DNA of 64,000 nt from assembly GCA_013694995.1 (NCBI GenBank), contig JACDBH010000002.1, positions 17,425 to 81,424 of the forward strand. The letters run 5' to 3'. Both the position numbers and the translations under genes were made by a program. Shown here in pieces: positions 14,936 to 61,149 of the stretch (position 1 is the stretch's first letter; each line of letters opens with the position of its first letter). The notes under the pieces are model-generated. The model made no database searches and had not been told where the DNA came from. It saw only the letters and a program-made list of their open reading frames with translations. The DNA comes from Candidatus Saccharimonadota bacterium. Its GTDB lineage: Bacteria > Patescibacteriota > Saccharimonadia > Saccharimonadales > JACDBH01.

Positions 14936-15730
14936 ATGGCAAATGATTACTGGAGGCAGCGCACCAAACCTTACGAACCTGGGCAAAAAACGGCCTTTAA
15001 GTTGTCGCGTAGCAAAATCGAGCTGTTCATGCAATGCCCACGTTGTTTTTGGCTTGACGTGCGCCTCAAGATTACCCGACCCAACAGCCCGCCATTCAAT
15101 ATCAATAAAGCCATCGATGAACTTTTTAAAAAAGAATTTGATACTTACAGGTTAAAAAAACAACCGCATCCGTTAATGGTTGAGTTTGGCGTAGATGCAA
15201 TACCTTATGCAAGCGACGAGCTTGTTAAATGGCGCGAAAACTTTGTTGGCGTGGTTTCAATGCACGAGCCAACAAACCTGCACATCTTTGGGGCAATTGA
15301 TGACTTATGGGTAGACCCCGCAGGGAACGTGATAGTAGTCGATTATAAAGCTACCGCCAAAGCCAAGGAGGTTGATATCGACTCTGACTGGCAAATAAGT
15401 TATAAGCGCCAGTTGGAAATCTATCAGTGGTTGCTGCGGCAGAACGGCCTGAGTGTTAATGACACCGGTTATTTTGTCTATACTAATGGCCGGATGGATT
15501 TGGACGGGTTTAACGACCGGATTGAATTTCGTACAAAAGTCATACCTTATACAGGTAATGCCAATTGGGTTGAACCGACGATAAAAAAGATGAAAAAATG
15601 TATGGACGATGAAATGCCGGCGGTGGGTACGGCAGCTATGGGTGGCGAGTGCGACTTCTGCGCCTATGCAAAGGCACGTACAAGGCTGACACTAGAGGCT
15701 GTAAGCACTAAGCGGGCTATTAAAAAGTAG
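14936..15730 (+). CDS. PD-(D/E)XK nuclease with Cys cluster (Cas4/AddB-nuclease-like)
   Basis: 264 aa. N-terminal CPRCFW, central IDDLWV...VVDYKAT (D..D/ExK), C-terminal CDFCAY. Confidence 0.75.
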   Translation: MANDYWRQRTKPYEPGQKTAFKLSRSKIELFMQCPRCFWLDVRLKITRPNSPPFNINKAIDELFKKEFDTYRLKKQPHPLMVEFGVDAIPYASDELVKWRENFVGVVSMHEPTNLHIFGAIDDLWVDPAGNVIVVDYKATAKAKEVDIDSDWQISYKRQLEIYQWLLRQNGLSVNDTGYFVYTNGRMDLDGFNDRIEFRTKVIPYTGNANWVEPTIKKMKKCMDDEMPAVGTAAMGGECDFCAYAKARTRLTLEAVSTKRAIKK

Positions 15731-17516: not shown

Positions 17517-20129
17517 TTGATGAATAACAGGTTACTGAAGCGTATTTTAGGTGATCCGCAGATAAAAACTCTCCGCCGCCTCCGTAAACGGGTGGAAATT
17601 ATTAACGGGCTGGAATCAAAATATAAAAAACTCAGCGATACAAAGCTTAAAGATCAAACCAGTGTGCTTAAGAAACGCCTTGAAAAAGAAACCCTGGATG
17701 CAATTCTTCCCGATGCCTTCGCAGTCGTGCGGGAAGCTGCGCTGCGCACGCTAGGACAGCGTCACTTTGATGTCCAATTGATTGGTGGTATAGCGCTCCA
17801 CGAAGGCAAAGTAGCTGAGATGAAAACAGGAGAAGGCAAGACCTTGGTTGCAACACTGCCACTTTACTTAAATGCTTTAACTAAAAAAGGTGCCCATCTT
17901 GTAACGGTCAATGATTATTTGGCTCGAATTGGTGCCGGTTGGATGGCGCCCGTTTATGATTTCTTAGGAATCAGCGTTGGAGTTATTATCCCAGACCAAT
18001 CTTTTATTTATGATCCTGATTTTACCGATAATAGTCATGACGATCCACGGTTCAGCCACCTTAAGCCTTGCACTCGCCAAGAGGCTTATCGTGCGGACAT
18101 TACCTACAGCACCAACAATGAACTCGGTTTTGATTACTTGCGTGACAACATGGTGCGCAAAACAGACCAGTTGCGGCAACGCGAATTACATTATGCAATT
18201 GTCGATGAGGTGGACTCTATCCTAATTGACGAAGCCCGGACACCGCTGATTATTTCAGCTCCAGCTGTCGCCTCCGGAGCCAGCTATTCACAGTTTTCTA
18301 AATTTGTCCGCCAGCTAGAGCCCGAGCATTACGAAATCGATGAGAAACGTCGAAGTGTTATCTTGACTGATATTGGCGTTGAGAAAGTTGAGAAAATTCT
18401 TGGCATTAAAAGCCTTTATTCGACCGAAAATATCCGCAACATTTATCACCTGGAACAAGCCCTAAAGGCCCAGCTGCTCTTCAAGCGCGACAAAGATTAC
18501 GTAATTAGCTCAGACGGCGAGATTGTAATCGTTGATGAATTCACAGGACGGCTCTTAAAAGGCCGGCGCTATAACGAGGGTCTACACCAGGCCATTGAAG
18601 CTAAAGAAAACGTCGAAATACAACAAGAGTCTATGACACTTGCTACAATCTCGTTTCAGAACTATTTCCGCTTATACGAAAAATTGTCTGGTATGACAGG
18701 GACGGCCCTTACAGAGAGCGAAGAATTTCATCAAATATACAAATTAGATGTGTTGGAAATACCGTCAAACCGCAAAATAATCCGCGAAGACCGCTCTGAC
18801 CGTATTTATAAAACCGAAACCGACAAGTTCAAAGCCATAGTCGCTGAAGTCAAAAAGCTGCATGTCACTGGCCAGCCGGTGCTTATCGGCACGGTTTCAA
18901 TCGAAAAGAATGAAGCCCTTGCTAGCGCGCTCAAAAAAGCTAGCATTCCTCACCAGATACTGAACGCCAAGAATAATGAGCGTGAAGCAGCAATAGTTGC
19001 CCGTGCGGGCCAAAAGGGCGCGGTAACACTAGCCACAAACATTGCCGGACGTGGCACCGATATAGTACTAGACGAAGAAACAAAAAGACTTGGCGGACTG
19101 TTTGTTTTAGGCTCAGAGCGACATGAATCTCGACGCATCGACAACCAACTTCGGGGACGCAGTGGCCGTCAAGGAGATAAGGGTATTACGCAGTTCTTTG
19201 TGAGCACCGAGGACGAATTGATGCGCATATTCGGCGGTGAGCGTATCGGTTCTCTGATGGACCGACTCAAAGTAGACGATGAAACACCAATTGAAAACCG
19301 TATTATCAGTAAAAGCCTGGAATCGGCCCAGAAGAAAGTTGAAGGTTTCAACTTTGATATGCGCAAAAACGTTGTCCAGTATGACGATGTAATGAACCGC
19401 CACCGCAAGGCCGTCTATGCAATGCGCAAGGAAATACTACAGCAAGCCAACATCAGCAAACGCATAAAAGCCTTTATCCAGGATGAGGTTAGTCTATTAA
19501 TAGCTTCGCCGGAATCGTTAACGGATAAATTTGAGTCAGTACTAAAACAAATTTTCCCGTTTGATGAAGCAACACTAGACCGTTTGTTCGATGCTGATGC
19601 CAGCCAATTTGAGAAAACTTTACTAACAGAAGCTGAGGAACTTTATACTTCGCGCGAGGCAGCTTTTGGCGGCAAAGTGCTAAAAAAAGTGGAGCGCGAT
19701 ATATATCTTCAGGTGCTCGACAACTTATGGATGCAGCATCTTGAGAACATGGATCATTTGCGCGAAGGTATTCACTGGCTGAGTGTCGGACAGCGTGATC
19801 CTTTGGTAGAGTATCGTCGCCAGTCGCAAGTAATATTCGCTGAAATGCAAAGACAGTTACAGCACGATGTGCTCCGAAGCGTATTTAATGCCCAGCCAGT
19901 TGATGATAGCGAATTGGACGAACCGACCGATACCGAACTCACCCGGGCAGCGCGAGCCTCGGTAGATAATGCCGATCGCATCTTAGAAGTGGATGAGTTC
20001 GATGAGCGTGATTTTAAACCTTCAGCTCAAGCTGGTGGTGGCACCAAAGTTCAAATTACCAAAAGCAAGAAACAGAAGCAGCGGAAAGCCGAACGCCAAC
20101 GCCGCCATAAGACAAAAAAGCGAAAATAA
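17517..20129 (+). CDS. secA: Preprotein translocase ATPase SecA
   Basis: 870 aa. MKTGEGKTL Walker A and DEVDSILIDEARTPLIIS motifs. Lys-rich C-terminal tail without Cys. The start may be ATG at 17520. Confidence 0.96.
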   Translation: MMNNRLLKRILGDPQIKTLRRLRKRVEIINGLESKYKKLSDTKLKDQTSVLKKRLEKETLDAILPDAFAVVREAALRTLGQRHFDVQLIGGIALHEGKVAEMKTGEGKTLVATLPLYLNALTKKGAHLVTVNDYLARIGAGWMAPVYDFLGISVGVIIPDQSFIYDPDFTDNSHDDPRFSHLKPCTRQEAYRADITYSTNNELGFDYLRDNMVRKTDQLRQRELHYAIVDEVDSILIDEARTPLIISAPAVASGASYSQFSKFVRQLEPEHYEIDEKRRSVILTDIGVEKVEKILGIKSLYSTENIRNIYHLEQALKAQLLFKRDKDYVISSDGEIVIVDEFTGRLLKGRRYNEGLHQAIEAKENVEIQQESMTLATISFQNYFRLYEKLSGMTGTALTESEEFHQIYKLDVLEIPSNRKIIREDRSDRIYKTETDKFKAIVAEVKKLHVTGQPVLIGTVSIEKNEALASALKKASIPHQILNAKNNEREAAIVARAGQKGAVTLATNIAGRGTDIVLDEETKRLGGLFVLGSERHESRRIDNQLRGRSGRQGDKGITQFFVSTEDELMRIFGGERIGSLMDRLKVDDETPIENRIISKSLESAQKKVEGFNFDMRKNVVQYDDVMNRHRKAVYAMRKEILQQANISKRIKAFIQDEVSLLIASPESLTDKFESVLKQIFPFDEATLDRLFDADASQFEKTLLTEAEELYTSREAAFGGKVLKKVERDIYLQVLDNLWMQHLENMDHLREGIHWLSVGQRDPLVEYRRQSQVIFAEMQRQLQHDVLRSVFNAQPVDDSELDEPTDTELTRAARASVDNADRILEVDEFDERDFKPSAQAGGGTKVQITKSKKQKQRKAERQRRHKTKKRK

Positions 20130-32902: not shown

Positions 32903-33979
32903 ATGGCAGCGAAAATTAAGTTAAACTTTAAATTCTGGCTCAATATTATAACGATTGGGGCTTTGGTATTCCTGGTGGTTATTTCATGGGACCAGATAAT
33001 CGAGGCTTTCCGGAAGTTGGATAGTCTCAATACCTGGGCATTGTTACTTATGATTCCAATCCAGCTCATAAGTTACTACGGTGTGGCCCGATTATATCGC
33101 GACTTTTTTGCTTCGCAAGGTGAGCATGTACCCCTTAAAACCCTCTACTCAGTCGCGCTTGAGCTTAATTTTGTGAATCATGTGTTTCCAAGCGGTGGAG
33201 TTAGTGGATTCAGTTACCTTAGTTTGCGCTTAAAGAACTTAGGTATTAGTACTGCTAAGAGTACATTGGCTCAGATTTTGCGCTTTACACTAACATTTAT
33301 TTCTTTTTTGGTGTTGCTATTTTTTGGCATGATTATGCTGTCGTTTGGTTCTAATACCAGCCCGCTAACTATTCTTATTAGTTCAACTATAATTTTTATG
33401 ACTATTTTTGGCGTCATGGTTGGGGTTTATATAATTAGTGAACTAAGGCGAATCAATGCATTTGTCAGCTGGTTGCCCAGGGCGCTCAATAAGTTAATTG
33501 GTGTCTTCCGTAAGAACCGCCGATCAGTCATAGATATCGCTAAAGTTGAAAAAACCCTCGAGGACCTACATCAGGATTATATTTTGCTGCGTAAGGATCT
33601 GGGGCAGATCAAGAAGCTACTTGGTTGGGCGCTACTAATTAATATTACCGAAGTACTCACAATCTATATGGTTTACATTGCGTTCGGTAGCCTTATAAAC
33701 CCTGGCGCGCTCATCATAGCCTATGCAGTAGCTAATTTTGCTGGGCTAATAGCCGTATTGCCTGGAGGCGTGGGTATTTATGAGGGTTTAATGACGGCGG
33801 TGCTAGCTAGCGCTGGCGTTGAAAAAGCCCTGGCGTTGTCAGCGACTGTCATTTACCGTGTTTTGAGCATGCTGTACTTCCTGCCGGTGGGGTATTATCT
33901 ATATCAGCGTGCGCTCAAGAAATCAGACGGAAAAATTAAACCATCCAAAACCGATGTTACCTCTTTTATCACCAAGTGA
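32903..33979 (+). CDS. UPF0104 / flippase-like (MprF-TM-like) membrane protein
   Basis: 358 aa, about 8 TM helices. LPGGVGIYEGLMTAVL motif typical of the family. Confidence 0.7.
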   Translation: MAAKIKLNFKFWLNIITIGALVFLVVISWDQIIEAFRKLDSLNTWALLLMIPIQLISYYGVARLYRDFFASQGEHVPLKTLYSVALELNFVNHVFPSGGVSGFSYLSLRLKNLGISTAKSTLAQILRFTLTFISFLVLLFFGMIMLSFGSNTSPLTILISSTIIFMTIFGVMVGVYIISELRRINAFVSWLPRALNKLIGVFRKNRRSVIDIAKVEKTLEDLHQDYILLRKDLGQIKKLLGWALLINITEVLTIYMVYIAFGSLINPGALIIAYAVANFAGLIAVLPGGVGIYEGLMTAVLASAGVEKALALSATVIYRVLSMLYFLPVGYYLYQRALKKSDGKIKPSKTDVTSFITK

Positions 33980-35057
33980 ATTCGTAGCCCTAGTTAATCA
34001 AACATTGGAGTTCGCGTATCCTCTAGTGGAGATAGAAGGCGAAGTAAGTAACTTTAAAATCAGTAAAAATCGATGGGTTTATTTCGATATTCAGGACGAA
34101 GGAGCCAAAGTTCGCTGCTTCGGAACAGTCTATATGTTGCCGGCGCCGGTTGAGGATGGCATGATGGTGCGTCTCGTTTCAATACCTAAGCTGCATCCTC
34201 AATTTGGCTTCAGCTGCAATCTTCAGTCGCTACAATTCAGTGGCGAAGGGACAATCAAAAAAGCGTCAGATCTGTTGGCAGCCCAATTAGAAAAGGAGGG
34301 TTTATTTGCAGCTGAGCGAAAACGTCAGCTGCCGTATCCGCCGCAACGCATTGCATTAATTGCGTCGAGTGAATCCGCAGGATATAAGGATTTTTTAAAA
34401 ATATTAGAGAGCCGTTACGGCGGCATGGAAATTGAACTGGCTGACGTACAAGTACAAGGCGAAGCCGCTGTGCAGCAGATTGTTAGCGCTATAGAATGGT
34501 TCAACAAGCAGGCCGACCTTGCTGATGTTATAGTTTTAACTCGCGGCGGTGGCAGTGCTGACGACCTACAGGCCTTTAGCTCGGAGCAAGTGACGAGGGC
34601 GGTAGCTAGCAGCCGTATACCCACTATAATTGCAATTGGCCACGAGGTAGATATAAGCCTAGCAGAATTAGCGGCCGACAAACGGGCCAGTACACCTAGT
34701 AATGCCGCTGAAATATTAGTACCCGACAGACGCGCCCTATTGCAGGAACTATCTATGACCACTAAACAGCTTGAACGAGATTTTATGGCATCAATCGTGC
34801 AACAATCAGAATTTATACATGCACTCAGAGGCCAGCTAGATAGTGTTTTGCAACGTATGTTGACTAGTAAACAAACAGAGCTTATGCACCTGAGCCGTAC
34901 ACTAGAAGTACTGAGCCCACAAGCTATATTGCGCCGCGGCTATAGTATTGTACGGTCGCTGGATGGCAGGGCAGTGCGGATTGCAAAGTCATTACGTGCA
35001 AAAGACATGGTAAAGATAGAATTTGCCGACGGCAATGTAGAGGCTAAGGTACAATAA
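33954..35057 (+). CDS. xseA: Exodeoxyribonuclease VII large subunit
   Basis: Starts MLPLLSPSEFVALVNQTLE with EIEGEVSNF (OB fold). Contains TRGGGSADDL. The track start (33909) was trimmed. Confidence 0.92.
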   Translation: MLPLLSPSEFVALVNQTLEFAYPLVEIEGEVSNFKISKNRWVYFDIQDEGAKVRCFGTVYMLPAPVEDGMMVRLVSIPKLHPQFGFSCNLQSLQFSGEGTIKKASDLLAAQLEKEGLFAAERKRQLPYPPQRIALIASSESAGYKDFLKILESRYGGMEIELADVQVQGEAAVQQIVSAIEWFNKQADLADVIVLTRGGGSADDLQAFSSEQVTRAVASSRIPTIIAIGHEVDISLAELAADKRASTPSNAAEILVPDRRALLQELSMTTKQLERDFMASIVQQSEFIHALRGQLDSVLQRMLTSKQTELMHLSRTLEVLSPQAILRRGYSIVRSLDGRAVRIAKSLRAKDMVKIEFADGNVEAKVQ

Positions 35058-52170: not shown

Positions 52171-53214
52171 ATGCAAGAAACTATAACAATTATTATCGAA
52201 CAAGAAACATTACTAAGAATCATGGTATTAAGCTTTGCCGGTTTCTTAATCAGTATGCTTTTAACGCCTTTTTATACAACGCTTGCTTATAAGTACCAGT
52301 GGTGGAAAAAGGCTAGAACCGACACCGTTACTGGCGAGAAGGCTAGTGTTTACCAGTCATTGCATGGGGAAAAACACCGCCGAAATATACCGACTATGGC
52401 TGGCGTTATCTTTGTAGCCAGTATTGCGCTCGTGACACTATCTGGCAATCTGATTAGGACCGAAACCTGGCTACCACTTGCGGCAATGGTTGGAGCCGGG
52501 CTAATAGGACTAGTCGACGATGTTTTTAATACGCGCAGCACAGGTGGTATTGCCGGAATGCGGGCTAAGATTAAACTCTTTTTAATTACGATGGTCGCCA
52601 GTGTGGGCGGCTGGTGGTTCTATGATAAGCTGGACGTCAGCTCAATCCATATTCCATTCGTTGATTCGCCTTTGCAACTCGGCATCCTAATAATTCCTCT
52701 GTTTGTCCTGGTTGTAGTCTCTACTGCCAACGCTGTCAATATCACCGATGGTCTTGACGGACTGGCTGGCGGGTTGGTGTCAATTGATTTTGCTATGTAT
52801 GCGTTAATCGCGTTTTTAGAAGGACGTTACGGTGTGGCTGGCTTCTGTATGACCATTGTCGGGGCACTTTTAAGTTATACATGGTTCAATATATTCCCAG
52901 CGCGCTTCTTCATGGGAGACGTCGGATCGTTTGCATTGGGCACGGCCTTGGGCGTTGTTGCGATGTTAACCGATACAGTGTTGATATTGCCGATTATTGG
53001 CTTTGTTTTTGTAGTAGAAGCTGGCTCAAGTTTGCTGCAGATTTTATCTAAAAAATTACGTAAAGGACGAAAAATATTCCGCATAGCTCCAATTCACCAT
53101 CACTTTGAAGCCCTGGGATGGGAAGAAACCAAAGTAACTATGCGGTTCTGGGTAGTAGGTCAGGTGATGGGTGTCTTAGGTCTCATAGTCTATATTTTTG
53201 GTGGCAAATTATGA
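52171..53214 (+). CDS. mraY: Phospho-N-acetylmuramoyl-pentapeptide transferase
   Basis: 347 aa. NAVNITDGLDGLA and FMGDVGS motifs. Confidence 0.95.
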   Translation: MQETITIIIEQETLLRIMVLSFAGFLISMLLTPFYTTLAYKYQWWKKARTDTVTGEKASVYQSLHGEKHRRNIPTMAGVIFVASIALVTLSGNLIRTETWLPLAAMVGAGLIGLVDDVFNTRSTGGIAGMRAKIKLFLITMVASVGGWWFYDKLDVSSIHIPFVDSPLQLGILIIPLFVLVVVSTANAVNITDGLDGLAGGLVSIDFAMYALIAFLEGRYGVAGFCMTIVGALLSYTWFNIFPARFFMGDVGSFALGTALGVVAMLTDTVLILPIIGFVFVVEAGSSLLQILSKKLRKGRKIFRIAPIHHHFEALGWEETKVTMRFWVVGQVMGVLGLIVYIFGGKL

Positions 53215-54452
53215 ACGTAACCATCCGTTCTCGCCGACCAAGTCTTGATGAGCCACGCCGCCGCCATCGACCAGATTACTGGCTACCACTGATTGCAGTC
53301 GCATTACTATCTATTGGCTTGGTCGTTGTTTATGCTATTAGTCCCGGTATGAGCGCCCTAAAAGGAGTGTCAGAAAGCTATTATATTTCCAAGCAGTTGA
53401 TTGCCATATTACTAGGTGTGGCAGCATTCATTATCCTATCGAAAGTTCCTTATACATGGTGGCGCAGGGCAGTGCTACCGCTTATTATAGCCGCGATAGT
53501 ATCGGCAGTGGCTGTCCAGTTATTTGGTTCGCGTGTTAACGGTGCCTATCGTTGGATTCAGGTTGGCGGCGTTTCTTTTCAGGCTGCAGAACTAATAAAA
53601 TTCGCGTTACTTATATGGATGGCTGATTTGCTAGCTCGTCGCAAAGCCGAAAGTCGGCTCGGAAATTCTCGTTTGACTTTGCAACCACTGGTGATTGGCA
53701 TGTGTGCAATTGGTATAGTGGTGGGAGTAATGCAAAGTGACTTCGGCTCGACAGCCGTTATGGTCGGTATGGCAGCAGCCATGATGTTTGTGGCCGGGGT
53801 GCCGCTGAAACGGCTAGCAATAGTCGGCGGTGTAATTGTTATAGGGGCCTTTTTGCTCATTTCTACATCAAGTTACCGTCGTGAGCGCTTAACTACTTTT
53901 ATAAACCCAACAGCTGACTGTCAGGACGCCGGCTACCAGTCGTGCCAAGCGCTAATAGCAGTCGGATCTGGCGGTATGTTTGGGCTTGGTCTGGCGCGCA
54001 GTATCCAGGCTTACGGTTATCTACCAGAGGCTGCGAATGATTCGATTTTTGCAATCTTAGCAGAAAAATTCGGATTCTTAGGAGTGTCACTGATAATTGC
54101 CGCTTATGCAGTGTTCTTTGGCCGATTAACACGAATAATCGAACGCGCCCCCGATGATTTTAGCCGCTTGATAATTACTGGCATGTTAGCCTGGTTCAGC
54201 GTGCAAACTATTATTAATATTGGTGCTATGATTGGTTTGTTGCCGCTTAAGGGCATTACGCTTCCATTTGTCAGTTACGGCGGCACCAGCTTATTATTTG
54301 TAACTGGCGCCTTGGGAATTGCTTTTCAAATTTCGCGCTATGCGGCACTTTCAGGCAAGACTAACGACTCAGGAGCGACCTCGTATGACGATACTGCTTA
54401 CGGGCGGGGGAACAGGCGGCCATATTACGCCGCTGCTGGCCGTCGCACGTGA
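53211..54452 (+). CDS. ftsW: SEDS peptidoglycan glycosyltransferase FtsW
   Basis: Starts MNVTIRSRRP (ATGA overlap with mraY). SFQAAELIKF and LPFVSYGGTSLL motifs. The track start (53118) was trimmed. Confidence 0.92.
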   Translation: MNVTIRSRRPSLDEPRRRHRPDYWLPLIAVALLSIGLVVVYAISPGMSALKGVSESYYISKQLIAILLGVAAFIILSKVPYTWWRRAVLPLIIAAIVSAVAVQLFGSRVNGAYRWIQVGGVSFQAAELIKFALLIWMADLLARRKAESRLGNSRLTLQPLVIGMCAIGIVVGVMQSDFGSTAVMVGMAAAMMFVAGVPLKRLAIVGGVIVIGAFLLISTSSYRRERLTTFINPTADCQDAGYQSCQALIAVGSGGMFGLGLARSIQAYGYLPEAANDSIFAILAEKFGFLGVSLIIAAYAVFFGRLTRIIERAPDDFSRLIITGMLAWFSVQTIINIGAMIGLLPLKGITLPFVSYGGTSLLFVTGALGIAFQISRYAALSGKTNDSGATSYDDTAYGRGNRRPYYAAAGRRT

Positions 54453-55548
54453 ATTAAAACAGCTTGATCCTAGCTTAAACCTTATCGCAGTCTGCGAAAA
54501 GAATGCTAAATTCGTGTCTTTATTTGACAAAGAACCTGCAATAGACCAAGTACACCAAGTAAGGGCGGGGAAGTTCCGCCGCTACAGCGGTATGAAACTA
54601 CGACATAAAATAACCGATATTAAGACTATAGGTAAGAATGTAAGGGATAGCGCTTATGTCTTAGCCGGTTACAGACAAGCCCATAAATTAATTAAAGATT
54701 TAAAACCTGACGGAGTGTTTATTAAAGGTGGCTATGTCGGAGTTCCGGTCGGTCTGGCGGCCGCTCGGCTTAAAGTGCCTATTATCACGCATGATTCAGA
54801 TTCCACCCCAGGACTAGCTAACCGAATTATAGCTCGCTGGGCGACCGTTCACGCCACAGGTATGCCAGCCGAATATTATGACTATCCGAAAGATAAGACA
54901 GTATTTATCGGTATACCGGTTACGTCTGATTTCAAAATTGTCAATGATAAAGAACGTACCCAATACCGCGATGATTTAGGACTGGCCGATTGTCAAAGCG
55001 TCATAACGTTGATTGGAGGTAGCCAAGGGGCCGAACAGCTAAATAATGATATGGTCAGCATTGCTGGTCGCCTAATGCACTCAGATGAGCATTTGGGCAT
55101 CATCCACGTGACTGGACTAGCCCATGAACGCAATATACAGCAGAGTTATAATAATGAACTGCTGGCAGATGAGCGCCGACGGGTTGTTGTTAGGGGCTTT
55201 GTAACTGACATGTATCGTTACAGCGGGGCCGCCGATGTTGTTATCACCAGAGCAGGGGCCAACGCTACCTCTGAACTAGCAATCCAAAGGCTGCCAATTA
55301 TAGTTGTACCAGGTAGGTTGGCTAGCGGCCACCAGGATAAGAATGCACGTATTCTGGAAGAAAAGGGTGCTGCCATCGTGGTGGCTTATGGGGATAGCGA
55401 AGGCCTGTATGAGGCCATACAAGAGTTGCTTAAAAACACCGACCGGCGTCAGGATATGGCTGAACAACTTCATTTGCTGGCTAAGCCGCATGCCACCAAA
55501 CATTTGGCTGAACTTATATTAAAAACTTTTTCAGGTCAAGGCAGATAG
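54385..55548 (+). CDS. murG: UDP-GlcNAc:lipid I N-acetylglucosaminyltransferase MurG
   Basis: Starts MTILLTGGGTGGHITP after an AGGAG SD. Overlaps the ftsW 3' end by 68 nt. The track start (54319) was trimmed. Confidence 0.92.
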   Translation: MTILLTGGGTGGHITPLLAVARELKQLDPSLNLIAVCEKNAKFVSLFDKEPAIDQVHQVRAGKFRRYSGMKLRHKITDIKTIGKNVRDSAYVLAGYRQAHKLIKDLKPDGVFIKGGYVGVPVGLAAARLKVPIITHDSDSTPGLANRIIARWATVHATGMPAEYYDYPKDKTVFIGIPVTSDFKIVNDKERTQYRDDLGLADCQSVITLIGGSQGAEQLNNDMVSIAGRLMHSDEHLGIIHVTGLAHERNIQQSYNNELLADERRRVVVRGFVTDMYRYSGAADVVITRAGANATSELAIQRLPIIVVPGRLASGHQDKNARILEEKGAAIVVAYGDSEGLYEAIQELLKNTDRRQDMAEQLHLLAKPHATKHLAELILKTFSGQGR

Positions 55549-55554
55549 ACATAT

Positions 55555-56451
55555 ATGTTCCACCGCCGCCAGAGCGTACCGCGTCAGCGTCCGGACAGTA
55601 TCCGTCCCAGAGGCACTAAGGGCGTTTTTTCTTATTACAGTACCCCAAAAAGCAATGTCAGGCCGGGGAATAGAATGGAAAAGGCCATAGATAACATCGA
55701 AGTTGGGAGTAAAGCTCGTTCATTACCGGTACTAGTTGCCTTATCAGTAATAATATTAAGCATCTTAGCTAGCCTAACGGTTTCTATCCGTCCTAGTGTT
55801 AGTTTTGTCAAAGGTCAGACGGCACTTTATCGCAGCCAGTCGGATTATGAGAATGCCGCCCAAAATATATTAAGTAGGAAATTATCGAACCAAACGAAAC
55901 TTACAATCAACACCGGTAACGTAGAAGAGGAACTTGTAAACAGTTATCCGGAATTAGCAGCTGCAGCCTTTCGTCTGCCGGTTATTGGCCGCCGTGCCAA
56001 TCTTGTACTAGAGCTGAGGTTGCCGGCTATAATCCTGACTACCACTAGTAAGGCATATATACTCGACGACAGCGGGCTAATTGTAAGCGACTTGCAAAGT
56101 CTGGCAGTAGAGGCCAGAAGCGGCCTGCCGGTAGTACTGGATCAGGGAGGACTAGATCTTAAGGTTGGCGACCAGGCGGTTACAAGTGAAACGGTACGAT
56201 TTATACAAGCTATAACTGCGCAGCTTCAGGCCCAAAACCTGGTAGCTTCCCAGTTGACACTACCGGCTTCGGCCAATCAGCTCGACATCATACTTAAAGA
56301 TACTCCTTATTACATCAAAACCGACCTTTCAGGAGATGCAAGGGTGCAACTGGGCAGCTATTTAGCAGTCAAGGGCAGACTACTTAAAGATAATATTACA
56401 CCTGCCGAATATATTGACGTCAGGGTAGAGGAGAAGGTGTTCTATAAGTAA
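55555..56451 (+). CDS. ftsQ: FtsQ/DivIB-like cell division protein
   Basis: 298 aa. Basic cytoplasmic N-terminus, one TM helix, POTRA-like then beta-rich domain. Position after murG. Confidence 0.75.
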   Translation: MFHRRQSVPRQRPDSIRPRGTKGVFSYYSTPKSNVRPGNRMEKAIDNIEVGSKARSLPVLVALSVIILSILASLTVSIRPSVSFVKGQTALYRSQSDYENAAQNILSRKLSNQTKLTINTGNVEEELVNSYPELAAAAFRLPVIGRRANLVLELRLPAIILTTTSKAYILDDSGLIVSDLQSLAVEARSGLPVVLDQGGLDLKVGDQAVTSETVRFIQAITAQLQAQNLVASQLTLPASANQLDIILKDTPYYIKTDLSGDARVQLGSYLAVKGRLLKDNITPAEYIDVRVEEKVFYK

Positions 56452-56668
56452 AGGGTAGAGGGTTAAAGATAAAACGTCGTTAGTAAGCACAGCTGTACTT
56501 AAATCTAAATTCTTGGCCCAACGCCTAGAGAGCAATAAGGGTAGTGCCCCGTTACCCTGCGGGTGTTCATATTATGTTTATATTGTAGGTTGCAGTAAAA
56601 AAACATATAAAAATATAATTATATAAAAAAGCAAATATTGCAAATAGGGAAGGATAAGGTAGGGGTGT

Positions 56669-56708
56669 GGAAAAATCGTGAAAACCATATAGAAAGCAAG
56701 TTTTCACG
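56669..56708 (-). terminator. Intrinsic terminator on the minus strand inside the long spacer
   Basis: CGTGAAAAC (56677-56685) / GTTTTCACG (56700-56708), perfect 9-bp stem. On the minus strand it is followed by ATTTTTCC. Confidence 0.5.
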
Positions 56709-56836
56709 GTAAATAGCAAATACTTAGGCAATATGCTTATAAAATACTATGCAGGTGCTTAAGGCTCTAAATTAAAGTAATGTGAACCGCCTATGCAAAT
56801 AATCCTAAGTTATAAGCATAAATACTATGATAATAG

Positions 56837-56859
56837 TTAAAACTCCCCTGTAGTAGGGG
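56837..56859 (-). terminator. Weak hairpin + U-run on the minus strand downstream of the ATPase gene
   Basis: CCCCT / AGGGG 5-bp stem (56845-56859). Minus-strand tail AGTTTTAA. Confidence 0.3.
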
Positions 56860-56889
56860 TATAGTAAATCATTTACAAATGATATATAA

Positions 56890-56917
56890 GAGTCGTAAAA
56901 TATACATTGTGCGACGT
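56890..56917. other. dif-like 28-bp imperfect palindrome (11-6-11) with TGTATA/TATACA centre
   Basis: GAGTCGTAAAA-TATACA-TTGTGCGACGT. The inner 9-nt arms are complementary at 7 of 9 positions. The central hexamer equals that of E. coli dif as I recall it. Confidence 0.25.
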
Positions 56918-57014
56918 TCTTAATATACCTGCTTTCATTCCCCTAACACTTTCCTAATTACTGGCATTTACTTATTTATTTTTAATTTTTAATTCTTTTT
57001 GCCAATCACCCGCT

Positions 57015-59606
57015 CTAACGCAAGTGGATGATTTCTTCAGTTTCGTTTAAGTGCTTCGGCTGTATGTCTTTAGGTTCAGTATGTTCGTTATTTGTATGGT
57101 TCTGGGCAGCATGTTTTTTATGACGTGATCGAGTGCGTTTATGTTTGGCTGGTGGTTCAGTCTTACTATTTAGCTGAGATTCTACAGCATGGTTAATGAT
57201 AACCCGGGACAGAGTCGCTGCCTTGCCTGTTTCTTCGTGTGGGATTGGACGGTGTTCTTGTAACTGAGGCCTGACAAAGCTGCCCGGAGCTGGGCCAAGC
57301 TTTTTAGCCATGTTTTCCCTAACCCGGGCTTCGACTTCTGCACGGCTTTGGGCATAGTGTTTGCGGGACAGGGCAACAATTTCCTCGGTGTAATCCGCTT
57401 GCACTGGCGGCTGGTTTAAACTGGAACCGGAAAAAGGCGGCGACTTCTCACCATTGATTGTCATGGTACTTACGAAAAATCGATTATGAAGCTGAATCAA
57501 ATCGCCGGGTTCGAACTGCGGGGCGAAGTATTTGCTTAAGAACGAGGCATCATCGGCGCCGACGCGAAAGCTGACCATAGAGCCTACGTTACCAAAAACA
57601 GCGTCTCGGACTACCGGATCCATTTGTGAAACATACTGATTGGCGATGCTTAGATTGAGTCCGTATTTGCGGGCTTCGCTTAAAATAACTGCGAATGAAT
57701 CAGTTGCAAAGTTCTGGAATTCGTCAACATAAAGGTAGAACGGCTTACGTTCGCTCATGCCCACATTGGCCCGGCTCATGGCTGCTAACTGAATCTTAGT
57801 GACCATCAATGCTCCCAATATCGCTGCATTGTCCTCGCCTACAAGGCCCCGGCTTAAGTTAACCATCAATATCTTGCCTTCATCCATAAGTTTACGGATA
57901 CTGAAAGTGCTTTTAGGTTGTCCTACGATGTTTCTAATCATCGGGTTGGCCGTGAAGGCGCCGACTTTATTTAATACCGGTGCAACGGCTTCGGCGGCAA
58001 ACTTATCATTCCAGCTTGCGAACTCTGTCACCCAGAACGTCTTTACTACTGGATCGGTAAGGTATTTAATCACATCGTCTCTGAAGGCTTTCTCTGTCAG
58101 CATGCGGGTAATATCGAGCATAGTTGACTCGGGATAGTCTAGTAGCGCCAGGATGGTATAGCGCAGGATATACTCCAACCTTGGGCCCCAGCTATCGAAC
58201 ATGCGTTTCAAAACGCCTACTAACTCAGAGCTTATGTGATTCTTTAGGCTTTGGTCGGTGACTTCTAACGGATTAAAGCCAATCGGGAATTCCATATCGG
58301 ACGGATTAAAGTAAACCACGTCGTTTAAACGACGTTTTGGGATGAAGCGGAGCATATTTTGGGCATAATCACCGTGCGGATCAATAACACAGAAGCCCTG
58401 GTCGTAATAAATGTCGGATAAGGTCAAAAGTTCAAGCAAGCCGGTTTTGCCGGTGCCAGTCTGCCCAATAACGTAAATATGCCGGCCACGGTCGACACGG
58501 TTCATACCGAAAATTGTGTTAGTACCACGGAAGTTTGTGACACCAAAAAGGCTCAAATCCTGCTCGTTGTCGCCATCTATGACCGGTATATTGGATGGCG
58601 GTTCGGCCGTCTTGGTGGTAGCCCAGACAATATTGGGGGTTTCGACAGAAGTATGCGGCAGGTGAAATAGGCTCGCCAGCTCCTCTATATTCAATATATA
58701 TCCGCTATCGATAAAGAAACGGGCGCGATATTCGGTCAGTTTATCCATGCTAAAACTTGCTGTCTTTCCTTGGAAGCCATTCAAGTTGGTGGTATTAAAC
58801 TGCTTGAAGGCGCCGTGGATAGCCTGCATGCGCAGTTTTGCCATCTGTTGGTCGTGTCCGGCGTAAACTATCCGTATTTTTACCTGATAGCCTAATTTGA
58901 CCCCCTTCTCTTCTATGGCACGTATACGGGTCTTGTCACGCTCGCTTATTTCCGTTGCTCCACTCTTACTGCTCGCTTCAGGTGGCTTTACCAAGGCACC
59001 GAAGGCTTGACCGACAAATGCTGCCCCGGAGCCAGCAAATATGCCTCCCCCGCCCTGGATCTTACGGATCATTTTACTGCCGCGCTTATGCCAGTCATCA
59101 CTTATCGGTCGGGCCAGAATCTGAATCCAAACTTCTTCGTCAGGTTGATCGAGTTTAGCCAACGTGGCTGTTATTGCCGCCAGCGGGTCGACTTCAAAAC
59201 TCGGAAAAGTTTTAATAGGTATTGTTTCGTGGTCAGTCAGAACCAATTCGCTGGTATAGATTACAGATTGATCTAAGCTGCGGGTTGAATAATCATCCGG
59301 TTGTTCATATATCTGCACCGTTGGGTATTGGGCGTAAAGCTGGCCTTCTACGAATGGCTGTAGATGCTTGGGAGTCCAGATATAAAAGCGGATGCGTTGG
59401 CTCATAGCCACCATCTCTAATGAAATATGATCCTGCATGCCACCCTCAAACCGTACTTCCCTTTTTGTACGCAGTATTCCGTGTAAAGCCGCCAGCATCT
59501 GCTCGGCTGCCAGTTCCTTCTTATCGTTGGTGCGTGGAATCTCCAACAGGAGCAGTATGTCCCCGTTTGATTTTCTGCCGGTATTTTTAGTTCGTCGTAA
59601 TTTCAT
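57015..59606 (-). CDS. VirD4/TraG/TraD-like (type IV coupling protein family) ATPase with large N-terminal domain
   Basis: 863 aa. GQTGTGKTG Walker A, VIDPHGDY, FYLYVDEFQNF Walker B and LSIANQY motifs. About 380 aa N-terminal region with no clear TM helices. Basic C-terminal tail. Confidence 0.8.
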   Translation of the reverse strand: MKLRRTKNTGRKSNGDILLLLEIPRTNDKKELAAEQMLAALHGILRTKREVRFEGGMQDHISLEMVAMSQRIRFYIWTPKHLQPFVEGQLYAQYPTVQIYEQPDDYSTRSLDQSVIYTSELVLTDHETIPIKTFPSFEVDPLAAITATLAKLDQPDEEVWIQILARPISDDWHKRGSKMIRKIQGGGGIFAGSGAAFVGQAFGALVKPPEASSKSGATEISERDKTRIRAIEEKGVKLGYQVKIRIVYAGHDQQMAKLRMQAIHGAFKQFNTTNLNGFQGKTASFSMDKLTEYRARFFIDSGYILNIEELASLFHLPHTSVETPNIVWATTKTAEPPSNIPVIDGDNEQDLSLFGVTNFRGTNTIFGMNRVDRGRHIYVIGQTGTGKTGLLELLTLSDIYYDQGFCVIDPHGDYAQNMLRFIPKRRLNDVVYFNPSDMEFPIGFNPLEVTDQSLKNHISSELVGVLKRMFDSWGPRLEYILRYTILALLDYPESTMLDITRMLTEKAFRDDVIKYLTDPVVKTFWVTEFASWNDKFAAEAVAPVLNKVGAFTANPMIRNIVGQPKSTFSIRKLMDEGKILMVNLSRGLVGEDNAAILGALMVTKIQLAAMSRANVGMSERKPFYLYVDEFQNFATDSFAVILSEARKYGLNLSIANQYVSQMDPVVRDAVFGNVGSMVSFRVGADDASFLSKYFAPQFEPGDLIQLHNRFFVSTMTINGEKSPPFSGSSLNQPPVQADYTEEIVALSRKHYAQSRAEVEARVRENMAKKLGPAPGSFVRPQLQEHRPIPHEETGKAATLSRVIINHAVESQLNSKTEPPAKHKRTRSRHKKHAAQNHTNNEHTEPKDIQPKHLNETEEIIHLR

Positions 59607-60749: not shown

Positions 60750-61149
60750 TTGAAGGTATTTCTCGCTTTCCTGTTAGTATAAATAACACCTATGCTAATG
60801 CTATTTTAACAGCTATATTTTTAAATGTCAAACATATTTCGCCCGTGTTTTTCTATAACTTATTGTAGCATTGAATAGCCAAGTATGCACAAATTGTTTA
60901 TGGTAAATTACTAAAACACTTTTTTGCTAATCTGTAGAACCCGTGGACATCTGTTGTAAATTTGTTAAATATGATTTTTTAGTAATGCAATTTTATCCAA
61001 AGTTATGTCCTGCCCTCTCCCTCAACAAAGAAGCCTGACTTTTTCTATCTCCGGCCAAAGAACCAATGCTACTTACTATGGACAACCAGAGTGAGACAAA
61101 GCTGTTGGACTGCGTTTTTAGTGGCCTGGCTCTTATTAAAAGAAAAGAC

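Follow-up and report, generated by a model that had tools for sequence, protein, structure and literature searches.

A likely dif-type Xer site linked to a T4CP-like ATPase gene in Saccharibacteria, away from the strand-composition switch

The convergent spacer and its conserved 28-mer

The stretch of DNA analysed here, referred to throughout as the window, comprises 64,000 nucleotides of a contig (JACDBH010000002.1) from the metagenome-assembled genome of a Candidatus Saccharimonadota bacterium (Saccharibacteria, TM7). In its right-hand part a division and cell-wall (dcw) gene cluster on the plus strand ends at 56451 with an FtsQ-like gene and is met by a minus-strand gene, with its 3' end at 57015, for an ATPase resembling the type IV coupling proteins (T4CPs) TrwB and VirD4. 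The two stop codons are separated by an AT-rich, convergent intergenic spacer of 563 bp (56452-57014), which contains a 28-bp dif-like core site with the plus-strand sequence GAGTCGTAAAATATACATTGTGCGACGT at 56890-56917. An earlier interpretation made from the letters alone (the sequence-only reading) had proposed that the spacer is a candidate replication terminus and that the 28-mer is its dif-like site. The second part of this proposal is upheld by the conservation of the 28-mer, by its architecture of 11, 6 and 11 bp and by hybrid copies at the ends of prophages; the first part is contradicted by strand composition. The 28-mer is likely to be a dif-type Xer site linked to the T4CP-like gene and is the best candidate for the dif site of Saccharibacteria.

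The 28-mer and a perfect palindrome of 7-2-7 layout beside it, ATCATTTACAAATGAT (56868-56883), were both found as the sequence-only reading had described them. The core site is a feature of the minus strand, on which it reads as a left arm ACGTCGCACAA (56917-56907), a centre TGTATA (56906-56901) and a right arm TTTTACGACTC (56900-56890). The arms are inverted with respect to each other. When the right arm is reverse-complemented (GAGTCGTAAAA), 7 of its 11 positions agree with the left arm ACGTCGCACAA, and in one related locus (L070) the corresponding agreement is 11 of 11.

A search of the window for a canonical dif by similarity gave no significant match anywhere, and the candidate could not be distinguished by that measure. 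It is conservation, and not likeness to the dif of E. coli, that sets the site apart from chance. For the comparison, 80 loci of approximately 20 kb each (10 kb either side of the T4CP-like gene) were fetched around homologues of the ATPase; loci and contigs are referred to below by L numbers where they have to be told apart. The sequence-only reading had held that a genuine site ought to recur in syntenic spacers, and a mismatch-tolerant search found the 28-mer in 46 loci, once in each, in one fixed orientation and always downstream of the ATPase gene, the T4CP identity across these loci being 46% to 85%. Across Saccharibacteria the site stays linked to the 3' end of the T4CP-like gene, even where the neighbour on the opposite side is secDF and not the dcw cluster.

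When eleven spacers were aligned the mean column identity was 39% and the 28-mer was the sole strongly conserved block. Mean pairwise identity among relatives is 0.82 inside the site and 0.31 in its flanks. A logo of 45 distinct copies reads AA[T/C]GTCGCACAA for the left arm, which is nearly invariant, T[A/G]TA[T/G][A/C] for the centre, which is variable, and TTTT[A/G]CGAC[A]T for the less conserved right arm. A position weight matrix built from the relatives gives the window site a score of 40.9, with the next independent position in the 64 kb at 2.4 and the 99.99th percentile of the background, taken over 2.7 million positions, at -6. High-scoring sites number one per locus of approximately 20 kb and one in the window, extra copies being hybrid ones found at prophage ends only. 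In deeper-branching relatives the site takes the form ATGTCGCATAA-CATACA-TTATGCGACAT, or more generally ATGTCGCATAA-N6-TTATGCGACAT. The inner arms of this form, CGCATAA and TTATGCG, match the conserved inner arms of bacterial dif, as in the E. coli sequence.

Prophages, phage copies and the candidate recombinase

Evidence that recombination takes place at the site is provided by prophages. In three loci (L024, L144 and L177) elements of 4.6-5.5 kb lie between two direct copies of the site. Their gene content includes small hydrophobic proteins, a Rep of the G2P type (PF23343) and a Zot-type ATPase. The copies in L024, 4.6 kb apart, read ATGTCGCACAA-TATAGA-TTGTGCTAAGT at 14962 and ATGTCGCACAA-TATAGA-TTTTACGACAT at 19593; the inserted stretch has lower GC and nearly zero skew and encodes, besides the Rep, which is of the rolling-circle type, and the small hydrophobic proteins, a P-loop protein and a protein of 380 aa. 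The elements of L144 and L177 encode Rep together with Zot (PF05707), and their sites have the centres TGTATA and TGTACC. Within each flanking pair the left arm and the centre are identical and the right arm is divergent, the centre itself varying between genomes (TATAGA, TGTATA, TGTACC). In L024 and L144 it is the copy nearer to ftsQ that is the full site; the L177 contig is without ftsQ. No recombinase was found among the open reading frames (ORFs) of the three elements that were scanned against Pfam. The presence of hybrid direct copies with matching centres inside each genome argues for strand exchange at the site, and hybrid flanking copies of this kind are known for VGJphi and for the gonococcal island at dif (PMC5357621). 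From these flanks the Rep/Zot elements appear to be of the kind that appropriates the Xer recombination of the host at dif, which would identify the inovirus-like prophages of Saccharibacteria as Xer-exploiting elements.

In this they resemble the integrative mobile elements exploiting Xer (IMEX), which include CTXphi, VGJphi, TLCphi and the gonococcal genetic island. IMEX are likewise without an integrase and flanked by one full dif and one hybrid, and the inovirus-like gene content (Rep G2P and Zot) of the Saccharibacteria elements is a further likeness. The hybrid site of IMEX keeps one arm and the centre with the other arm divergent, as in difGGI and attP-VGJ (PMC5357621). The differences are that the hosts here are Saccharibacteria, members of the Candidate Phyla Radiation (CPR), and that many copies of the site are on tailed-phage contigs, often a few kb from terminase genes.

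These further copies came from a scan of IMG/VR with a pattern that covered the left arm, a portion of the centre and the initial TT of the right arm. By a rough estimate approximately 100 chance matches to this 15-base pattern are possible in the database, and for this reason only contigs in which the unspecified right arm also matched were counted. At least 120 stretches matched the pattern, and 56 viral contigs had the right arm as well and thus a full two-arm site. Eighteen of the 56 show FtsQ and an inovirus context and are prophage fragments; the other 38 carry no FtsQ, Rep or Zot markers (for example L083, L085, L091, L104, L131, L134, L155 and L176). The gene families most often seen near the site in the 34 of these 38 that were examined are the terminase large subunit and, again typical of tailed phages, portal/adaptor proteins; their genes are as a rule no more than a few kb away, and the arms of several copies of the tailed-phage type are perfectly symmetrical. 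The tailed-phage copies could be phage attachment (attP) sites, multimer-resolution sites or operators. As carriers of the same site these contigs provide a possible phage-host link for the CPR.

A candidate for the recombinase is offered by the closed genome of Southlakia epibionticum ML1, in which the synteny is the same as in the window (PMC10633639 supplement). This genome encodes exactly one PF00589 protein, SEML1_0117, which is XerC-like, is flagged as a core family and shows a growth defect in transposon sequencing (Tn-seq), and also an FtsK with a gamma domain (PMC10633639 supplement). The xer-like gene lies approximately 150 kb from the junction between the two gene blocks. The orthologue of the FtsQ-like gene of the window is SEML1_0275, which has a POTRA/FtsQ fold. 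Between FtsQ and the T4CP-like gene of ML1 there are small non-essential genes including Zot (SEML1_0284) and a Gp2-like Rep (SEML1_0285), and this inovirus-like run is followed by dinD and a type II-A CRISPR-Cas locus; the T4CP-like gene is itself non-essential and the sigma-like gene and topA are essential (PMC10633639 supplement). A single recombinase fits the nearly symmetrical arms of the 28-mer, and if there is only one recombinase, as in ML1, the assignment of XerC and XerD arms is not meaningful. We infer that a host Xer-like enzyme is the recombinase at the site and that dimer resolution is its host function.

The interval that separates the site from the T4CP-like gene has the character of an integration hotspot. 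A SocA/Panacea-like antitoxin paired with a Fic/Doc toxin is present between the gene and the site in L020 (6608-8049), L023 (8499-9859) and L024 (13075-14606). Other cargo seen in the interval includes an Abhydrolase_9 protein (L008), an Excalibur-domain protein (L018), a GH130 protein (L017) and the CRISPR-Cas II-A locus and dinD of ML1.

We arrive, with some reservation, at the reading that the 28-mer at 56890-56917 is probably an Xer-type site-specific recombination site of Saccharibacteria and a functional equivalent of dif that is located away from the terminus. Each of its two near-identical 11-bp arms (A[T/C]GTCG[C/T]A[C/A]AA) would bind one monomer of a single core-family XerC/D-like tyrosine recombinase, and strand exchange would take place across the 6-bp centre. 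A chromosome dimer would carry two copies of the site, and recombination between them would resolve it. Small filamentous phages without an integrase, and some tailed phages, would rely on the host enzyme, acting on the copy of the site that they carry, either to integrate or to resolve their own multimers.

A number of observations weigh against this reading. Searches by tblastn with E. coli queries found no xer, ftsK or dnaA in the window or in the syntenic loci, and in the same searches xer-like genes were seen only in three distant CPR loci (L074, L075 and L082). The case for a host recombinase is drawn solely from the recombinase-free inserted elements and from the lone recombinase of ML1. 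The copy counts cover approximately 20 kb per genome. The site is not at the GC-skew switch, where dif normally lies. The resemblance to E. coli-type dif on which the sequence-only reading had relied proved no better than background, the 28-mer matching the E. coli, B. subtilis and phylum dif consensuses at 16-19 of 28 positions against 19-22 for random coding positions of the window. The terminase-proximal copies could also fit a regulatory operator or a packaging role in those phages.

Comparison with the known systems shows a mixture of familiar and unfamiliar properties. As in XerCD/dif of E. coli and most bacteria, the site is 28 bp long with two imperfectly inverted 11-bp arms and a 6-bp centre, is present as a single conserved chromosomal copy (as far as the loci show) and is exploited by filamentous phages that have no integrase; its deep-branching variants keep the inner arms CGCATAA-N6-TTATG, and an FtsK gamma domain is present in the lineage (ML1). 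It departs from XerCD/dif in having one recombinase (ML1) and not two, in the near symmetry of its arms, in its outer arms, the right arm matching the canonical XerD arm TTATGTTAAAT at only 4 of 11 positions, and in its position off the GC-skew switch and beside a TrwB-like ATPase gene. The XerS/difSL system of streptococci and lactococci and the XerH/difH system of Helicobacter and Campylobacter also combine one tyrosine recombinase with a fairly symmetrical site, and a conserved left/right asymmetry could order binding and cleavage (PMC5357621). However, difSL and difH adjoin the xer gene in the terminus region, which the distant xer-like gene of ML1 does not match, the centre of difSL is 11 bp and not 6 bp, and the 28-mer has no sequence similarity to either site. 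A single recombinase and a 28-bp site are found again in archaeal XerA/dif, and XerA acts without FtsK (PMC5357621). The lineage considered here is bacterial and has an FtsK gamma domain, and no sequence relationship to the archaeal site is known. Duggin et al. (2011) are reported to have found that dif in Sulfolobus is outside the zones of fork fusion, which would be a precedent for a dif away from termination sites.

Full-text searches of a collection of papers found no description of a dif site or an Xer system in Saccharibacteria or the CPR, and the 28-mer is the first concrete candidate for a chromosome-dimer resolution site in these organisms. The question of where dif is placed is directly testable, as S. 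epibionticum and N. lyticus are genetically manipulable. The site is also a natural conserved landing pad and a possible basis for site-specific integration tools in Saccharibacteria.

Strand composition at the polarity switch

The switch in gene polarity on which the sequence-only reading had based its terminus was confirmed. Among ORFs of at least 100 aa there are 51 on the plus strand and three on the minus strand upstream of the gap, and every complete downstream gene in the window is on the minus strand. The minus-strand genes run for at least 12.6 kb past the gap with a single interruption by a small plus-strand ORF (87 aa in the annotation of the contig record and 115 aa as called in this analysis). 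The order topA, sigma-like gene, T4CP-like gene and then, convergently, ftsQ, murG and ftsW is found in approximately 40 Saccharibacteria with T4CP identity of 54-85%.

Since raw skew is confounded with coding strand, skew in the coding orientation was compared between sets of genes from the window and 5.6 kb of sequence beyond it. The upstream plus-strand genes (n = 51) have a GC skew of +0.072 at all sites and -0.126 at four-fold synonymous sites, and the downstream minus-strand genes (n = 9) have values of -0.014 and -0.359; the two sets differ on both measures (Welch p approximately 0.001). The three upstream minus-strand genes (-0.048 and -0.125) resemble the downstream genes at all sites but not at synonymous sites. 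The raw skew of the plus strand falls from +0.080 to +0.010 across the gap and is not reversed, and the skew extremum that had been proposed as a check on the terminus thus lies elsewhere than the gap.

The same contrast is seen in relatives. A terminus predicts no difference in skew between the two convergent gene sets, and yet 32 of 35 syntenic relatives show a difference in synonymous skew above 0.15, which is negative in 26 (down to -1.6) and positive in six; the same physical strand is therefore G-rich on both sides. Where genes of the minority orientation occur in relatives, their skew follows strand and not side. In two loci (L022 and L024) raw skew outside the inserted prophage is between -0.05 and -0.49 on both sides, and the cumulative curve is almost monotonic through the site. 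Pooled statistics would be pseudo-replicated because the same orthologues recur in every locus, and for this reason reliance was placed on contrasts within each locus, on oppositely oriented genes and on raw profiles.

These data bear directly on the explanation in which the spacer is the replication terminus, co-oriented genes converge on it and the 28-mer is a dif at the point where forks meet. In favour of this explanation, gene orientation does converge at the spacer, and this is conserved in the approximately 40 relatives; the cumulative GC skew curve of the window rises to a shallow peak near 58-60 kb; and most essential genes of ML1 ahead of the junction are on the plus strand, most of those beyond it on the minus strand. 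Replication crosses the junction in one direction in 26 loci and in the other in six, and this variation among lineages could mean that the junction is not very far from the terminus. However, the raw skew keeps its sign, the gene sets differ as described both in the window and in 32 of the 35 relatives, and the position of the junction in ML1, the relative in which this was looked at, is not opposite dnaA. In that genome dnaA is at position 1, preceded by rnpA-yidC-jag in the classical dnaA-dnaN arrangement, and the junction is at 264-279 kb of a chromosome of approximately 864 kb, only 30.5-32.3% (approximately 31%) of the way round. A closed Saccharibacteria genome with its origin at dnaA/dnaN and symmetrical skew has been described (PMC6031116). 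A replication terminus at the gap is not supported, and we regard this explanation as improbable; a switch in gene polarity together with a drop in raw skew is insufficient to call a terminus. Strand composition does not switch at the gap, and the polarity switch is instead a conserved boundary of long standing, where the dcw cluster as leading-strand block adjoins a lagging-strand block that contains the T4CP-like and sigma-like genes, topA, dprA, pth, der and others.

Other explanations dispense with the terminus altogether. It is conceivable, although we think it rather unlikely, that the 28-mer has no role in dimer resolution and is instead an attachment site for phages or an operator of palindromic form, kept by a non-Xer host protein or by re-creation by phages. 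Its position off the terminus, its position near terminase and portal genes in the 38 marker-free viral contigs, which suits an operator, and the presence in the spacer of other motifs resembling protein-binding sites (GAACA-N6-GAACA, TTTTCCACA and a promoter-like block) are compatible with such a role. Against this, hybrid direct copies with matching centres around integrase-less prophages indicate strand exchange and would be unexpected for an operator, the near-invariant left arm across the class in prophage-free genomes implies selection by the host, neither of the two genes whose stop codons flank the site needs an operator there, and the spacing of 11, 6 and 11 bp is the geometry of a tyrosine-recombinase site. 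Less probable again is a DNA-processing site of the adjacent TrwB-like ATPase, such as a loading site or an origin of transfer (oriT) serving transfer or uptake, that phages exploit secondarily. The resemblance of the ATPase to TrwB, the survival of its linkage to the site when the dcw cluster is replaced by secDF and the presence of dprA in the same block would agree with this, but no relaxase was seen nearby, an oriT is nicked and not recombined whereas the hybrid flanking copies point to conservative recombination, the occurrence of the T4CP-like gene beside xer and ruvCAB in other CPR lineages is a better fit to recombination, and the gene is dispensable in ML1. A role of the spacer as a replication origin or DnaA-related element was suggested by a conserved TT(T/A)TCCACA box, by T-rich blocks and by the 33% GC of the spacer. 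This candidate is effectively refuted, as the genes converge on the spacer and do not diverge from it, the DnaA-box-like sequences number no more than one or two, the skew has no minimum, no dnaA or dnaN is present in the window, in its 5.6-kb downstream extension (L001) or in the related loci, the origin is at dnaA/dnaN in the closed Saccharibacteria genome already mentioned (PMC6031116), and ML1 has the classical dnaA-dnaN arrangement.

The block comprising the T4CP-like and sigma-like genes, topA, dprA, pth, der and rluD (57015-69600, with L001 1-12592) is compositionally lagging here and in 26 of the 35 relatives, and its genes would therefore be transcribed head-on to replication. In the six reversed relatives it is the dcw cluster that is lagging.

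Other motifs of the spacer and the flanking genes

The AT-rich spacer as a whole is a conserved module of non-coding DNA and carries other conserved motifs besides the core. Its GC content is 33.0% against approximately 44% for the window, and the spacers of ten relatives are 459-830 bp long with GC 6-16 points under the average of the locus (L003, L006, L007, L009, L011, L047, L059, L061, L062 and L063). As the sequence-only reading had claimed, no true intergenic stretch of the window is longer; two larger 'gaps' in the crude gene set are artefacts of overlapping ORF calls. The next-longest real intergenic stretch measures 400 bp (60750-61149); it is also AT-rich (34% GC) and lies upstream of the gene for the sigma-70-region-4/HARE-HTH protein, between that gene and topA. 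The statement that the spacer has no ORF longer than about 20 codons was mistaken, as start-to-stop ORFs reach 54 codons (56567-56731, minus strand). A hidden gene for a small protein was considered and rejected, because the ORFs of the spacer (54 aa here and 79-146 aa, stop-to-stop, in relatives) share only the translations of conserved DNA motifs. No Rfam family reached its gathering threshold anywhere in the window, the matches in the spacer being at chance level (E above 6), and a search of the spacer for tRNA and tmRNA genes found none.

The most distinctive of the further motifs is a direct repeat, GAACA-N6-GAACA (equivalent to GAAC-N7-GAAC, with a period of 11 bp), of which the window has a copy with one mismatch, AAACATAATATGAACA, on the minus strand at 56564-56579. 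A search of 796 kb of the loci found the repeat 45 times, and 41 of these copies, in 31 loci, are no more than 1.5 kb from the site. One copy is found 340-590 bp from the site on the ftsQ side and often a second is found 190-265 bp from it on the T4CP side; the repeat is 26-160 bp from the ftsQ stop codon and often 26-52 bp from the T4CP stop codon too (L003, L005, L006, L009, L015, L028, L047 and others). Paired repeats are usually on the same strand and the copies within one genome are alike. The repeat is confined to the host side and was not found beside phage copies of the site. It looks like a candidate binding site for a response regulator or an accessory protein.

This repeat invites comparison with the plasmid sites cer (ArgR/PepA) and psi (ArcA/PepA), in which an Xer core located off the terminus is made independent of FtsK by flanking accessory sites. 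The likeness is an analogy only, as is that between the 11-bp periodicity of GAACA-N6-GAACA, typical of response-regulator sites, and the use by psi of ArcA, a response regulator. Unlike the accessory sites of cer and psi, which are within approximately 180 bp on one side of the core, the repeats are on both sides, at approximately 200 bp and 340-590 bp. Control of recombination by accessory sites or by the neighbouring ATPase, in place of terminus position, is suggested by the repeats, by the conserved linkage of the ATPase gene and by the xer and ruvCAB neighbours of its homologues in other CPR bacteria. As a speculative extension, and one that we consider doubtful, Saccharibacteria and perhaps other CPR bacteria might resolve dimers at a dif that is uncoupled from the terminus and controlled by the module around the core, through the GAAC-N7-GAAC repeats (in the manner of cer and psi), the TrwB-like (DUF8128) ATPase or both, and not by the convergence of FtsK and FtsK-orienting polar sequences (KOPS). 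A dif-type site off the skew switch, with repeats and a linked TrwB-like ATPase, would be at odds with the rule that a bacterial dif has to be at the meeting point of replication and of FtsK-orienting polarity.

In the distant CPR loci the neighbours of the TrwB-like ATPase gene are as follows. In L082 (12817-13787) the gene is followed by a convergent xerD-like gene, with a palindrome, TCGTATTTTTTCATTCTAAAAATTACGA, just upstream of the latter, and in L074 (12490-19107) and L075 (12479-17614) it is followed by yebC, ruvC, ruvA, ruvB and an xer-like gene.

The remaining motifs are on either side of the core. The 7-2-7 palindrome ATCATTTACAAATGAT is only partly conserved; an (A/T)TGAT(T)A block is kept in relatives with much the same spacing from the core, and in some of them (for example L009, with ATCAATAGTTGAT) a small palindrome is formed there also. 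A consensus scan identified a terminator-like hairpin followed by a T-run on the T4CP strand (56845-56859, minus strand), so placed that transcripts of the T4CP-like gene would cross the core site before reaching this predicted terminator, and a second terminator-like hairpin downstream of the FtsQ-like gene (56548-56563, plus strand). The spacer alignment also revealed a DnaA-box-like sequence, TTTTCCACA, one mismatch from the consensus TTATCCACA (56666-56674, minus strand), which is conserved as TT(T/A)TCCACA in most aligned spacers (alignment columns approximately 644-653 and 705-715); the 7-mers TTTTCCA and TTCCACA occur in 18 of 42 loci. At 56597-56640 on the minus strand the alignment, and promoter-like matches in the consensus scan, show a T-rich block with the consensus ATTTGACTTTTT, a gap of approximately 17-19 nt, TATATA and TTTTTT. 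In relatives it reads TTGACT, 17-19 nt and TATATA and is aimed at the 3' end of ftsQ. The block is possibly a promoter directed towards the ftsQ 3' end, or else a protein-binding or easily melted region. Together with TTTTCCACA, it could represent a promoter for an antisense or small RNA, for which there is no Rfam match, or a set of protein-binding sites.

The genes that flank the spacer are readily placed. To its left on the plus strand is the cluster mraZ-mraW-ftsL-like-ftsI-mraY-ftsW-murG-FtsQ-like, the last gene of which (55555-56451) is compositionally leading-strand. To its right the T4CP-like gene (57015-59606, minus strand) encodes a protein with DUF8128 and TrwB_AAD_bind domains that matches TrwB (PDB 1e9r) with E = 4.7e-5. 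Behind it on the minus strand are the genes for the sigma-70-region-4/HARE-HTH protein and then topoisomerase I, and past the end of the window, all on the minus strand, are dprA, pth, der, a pseudouridine synthase gene and a response regulator gene. The mechanical listing of plus-strand ORFs contains overlaps of 134 nt (53118-54452 with 54319-55548) and 71 nt (32903-33979 with 33909-35057). Such long overlaps are probably artefacts of the choice of start codon, since the annotated starts in the contig record give shorter proteins (MurG of 344 aa and FtsW of 413 aa).

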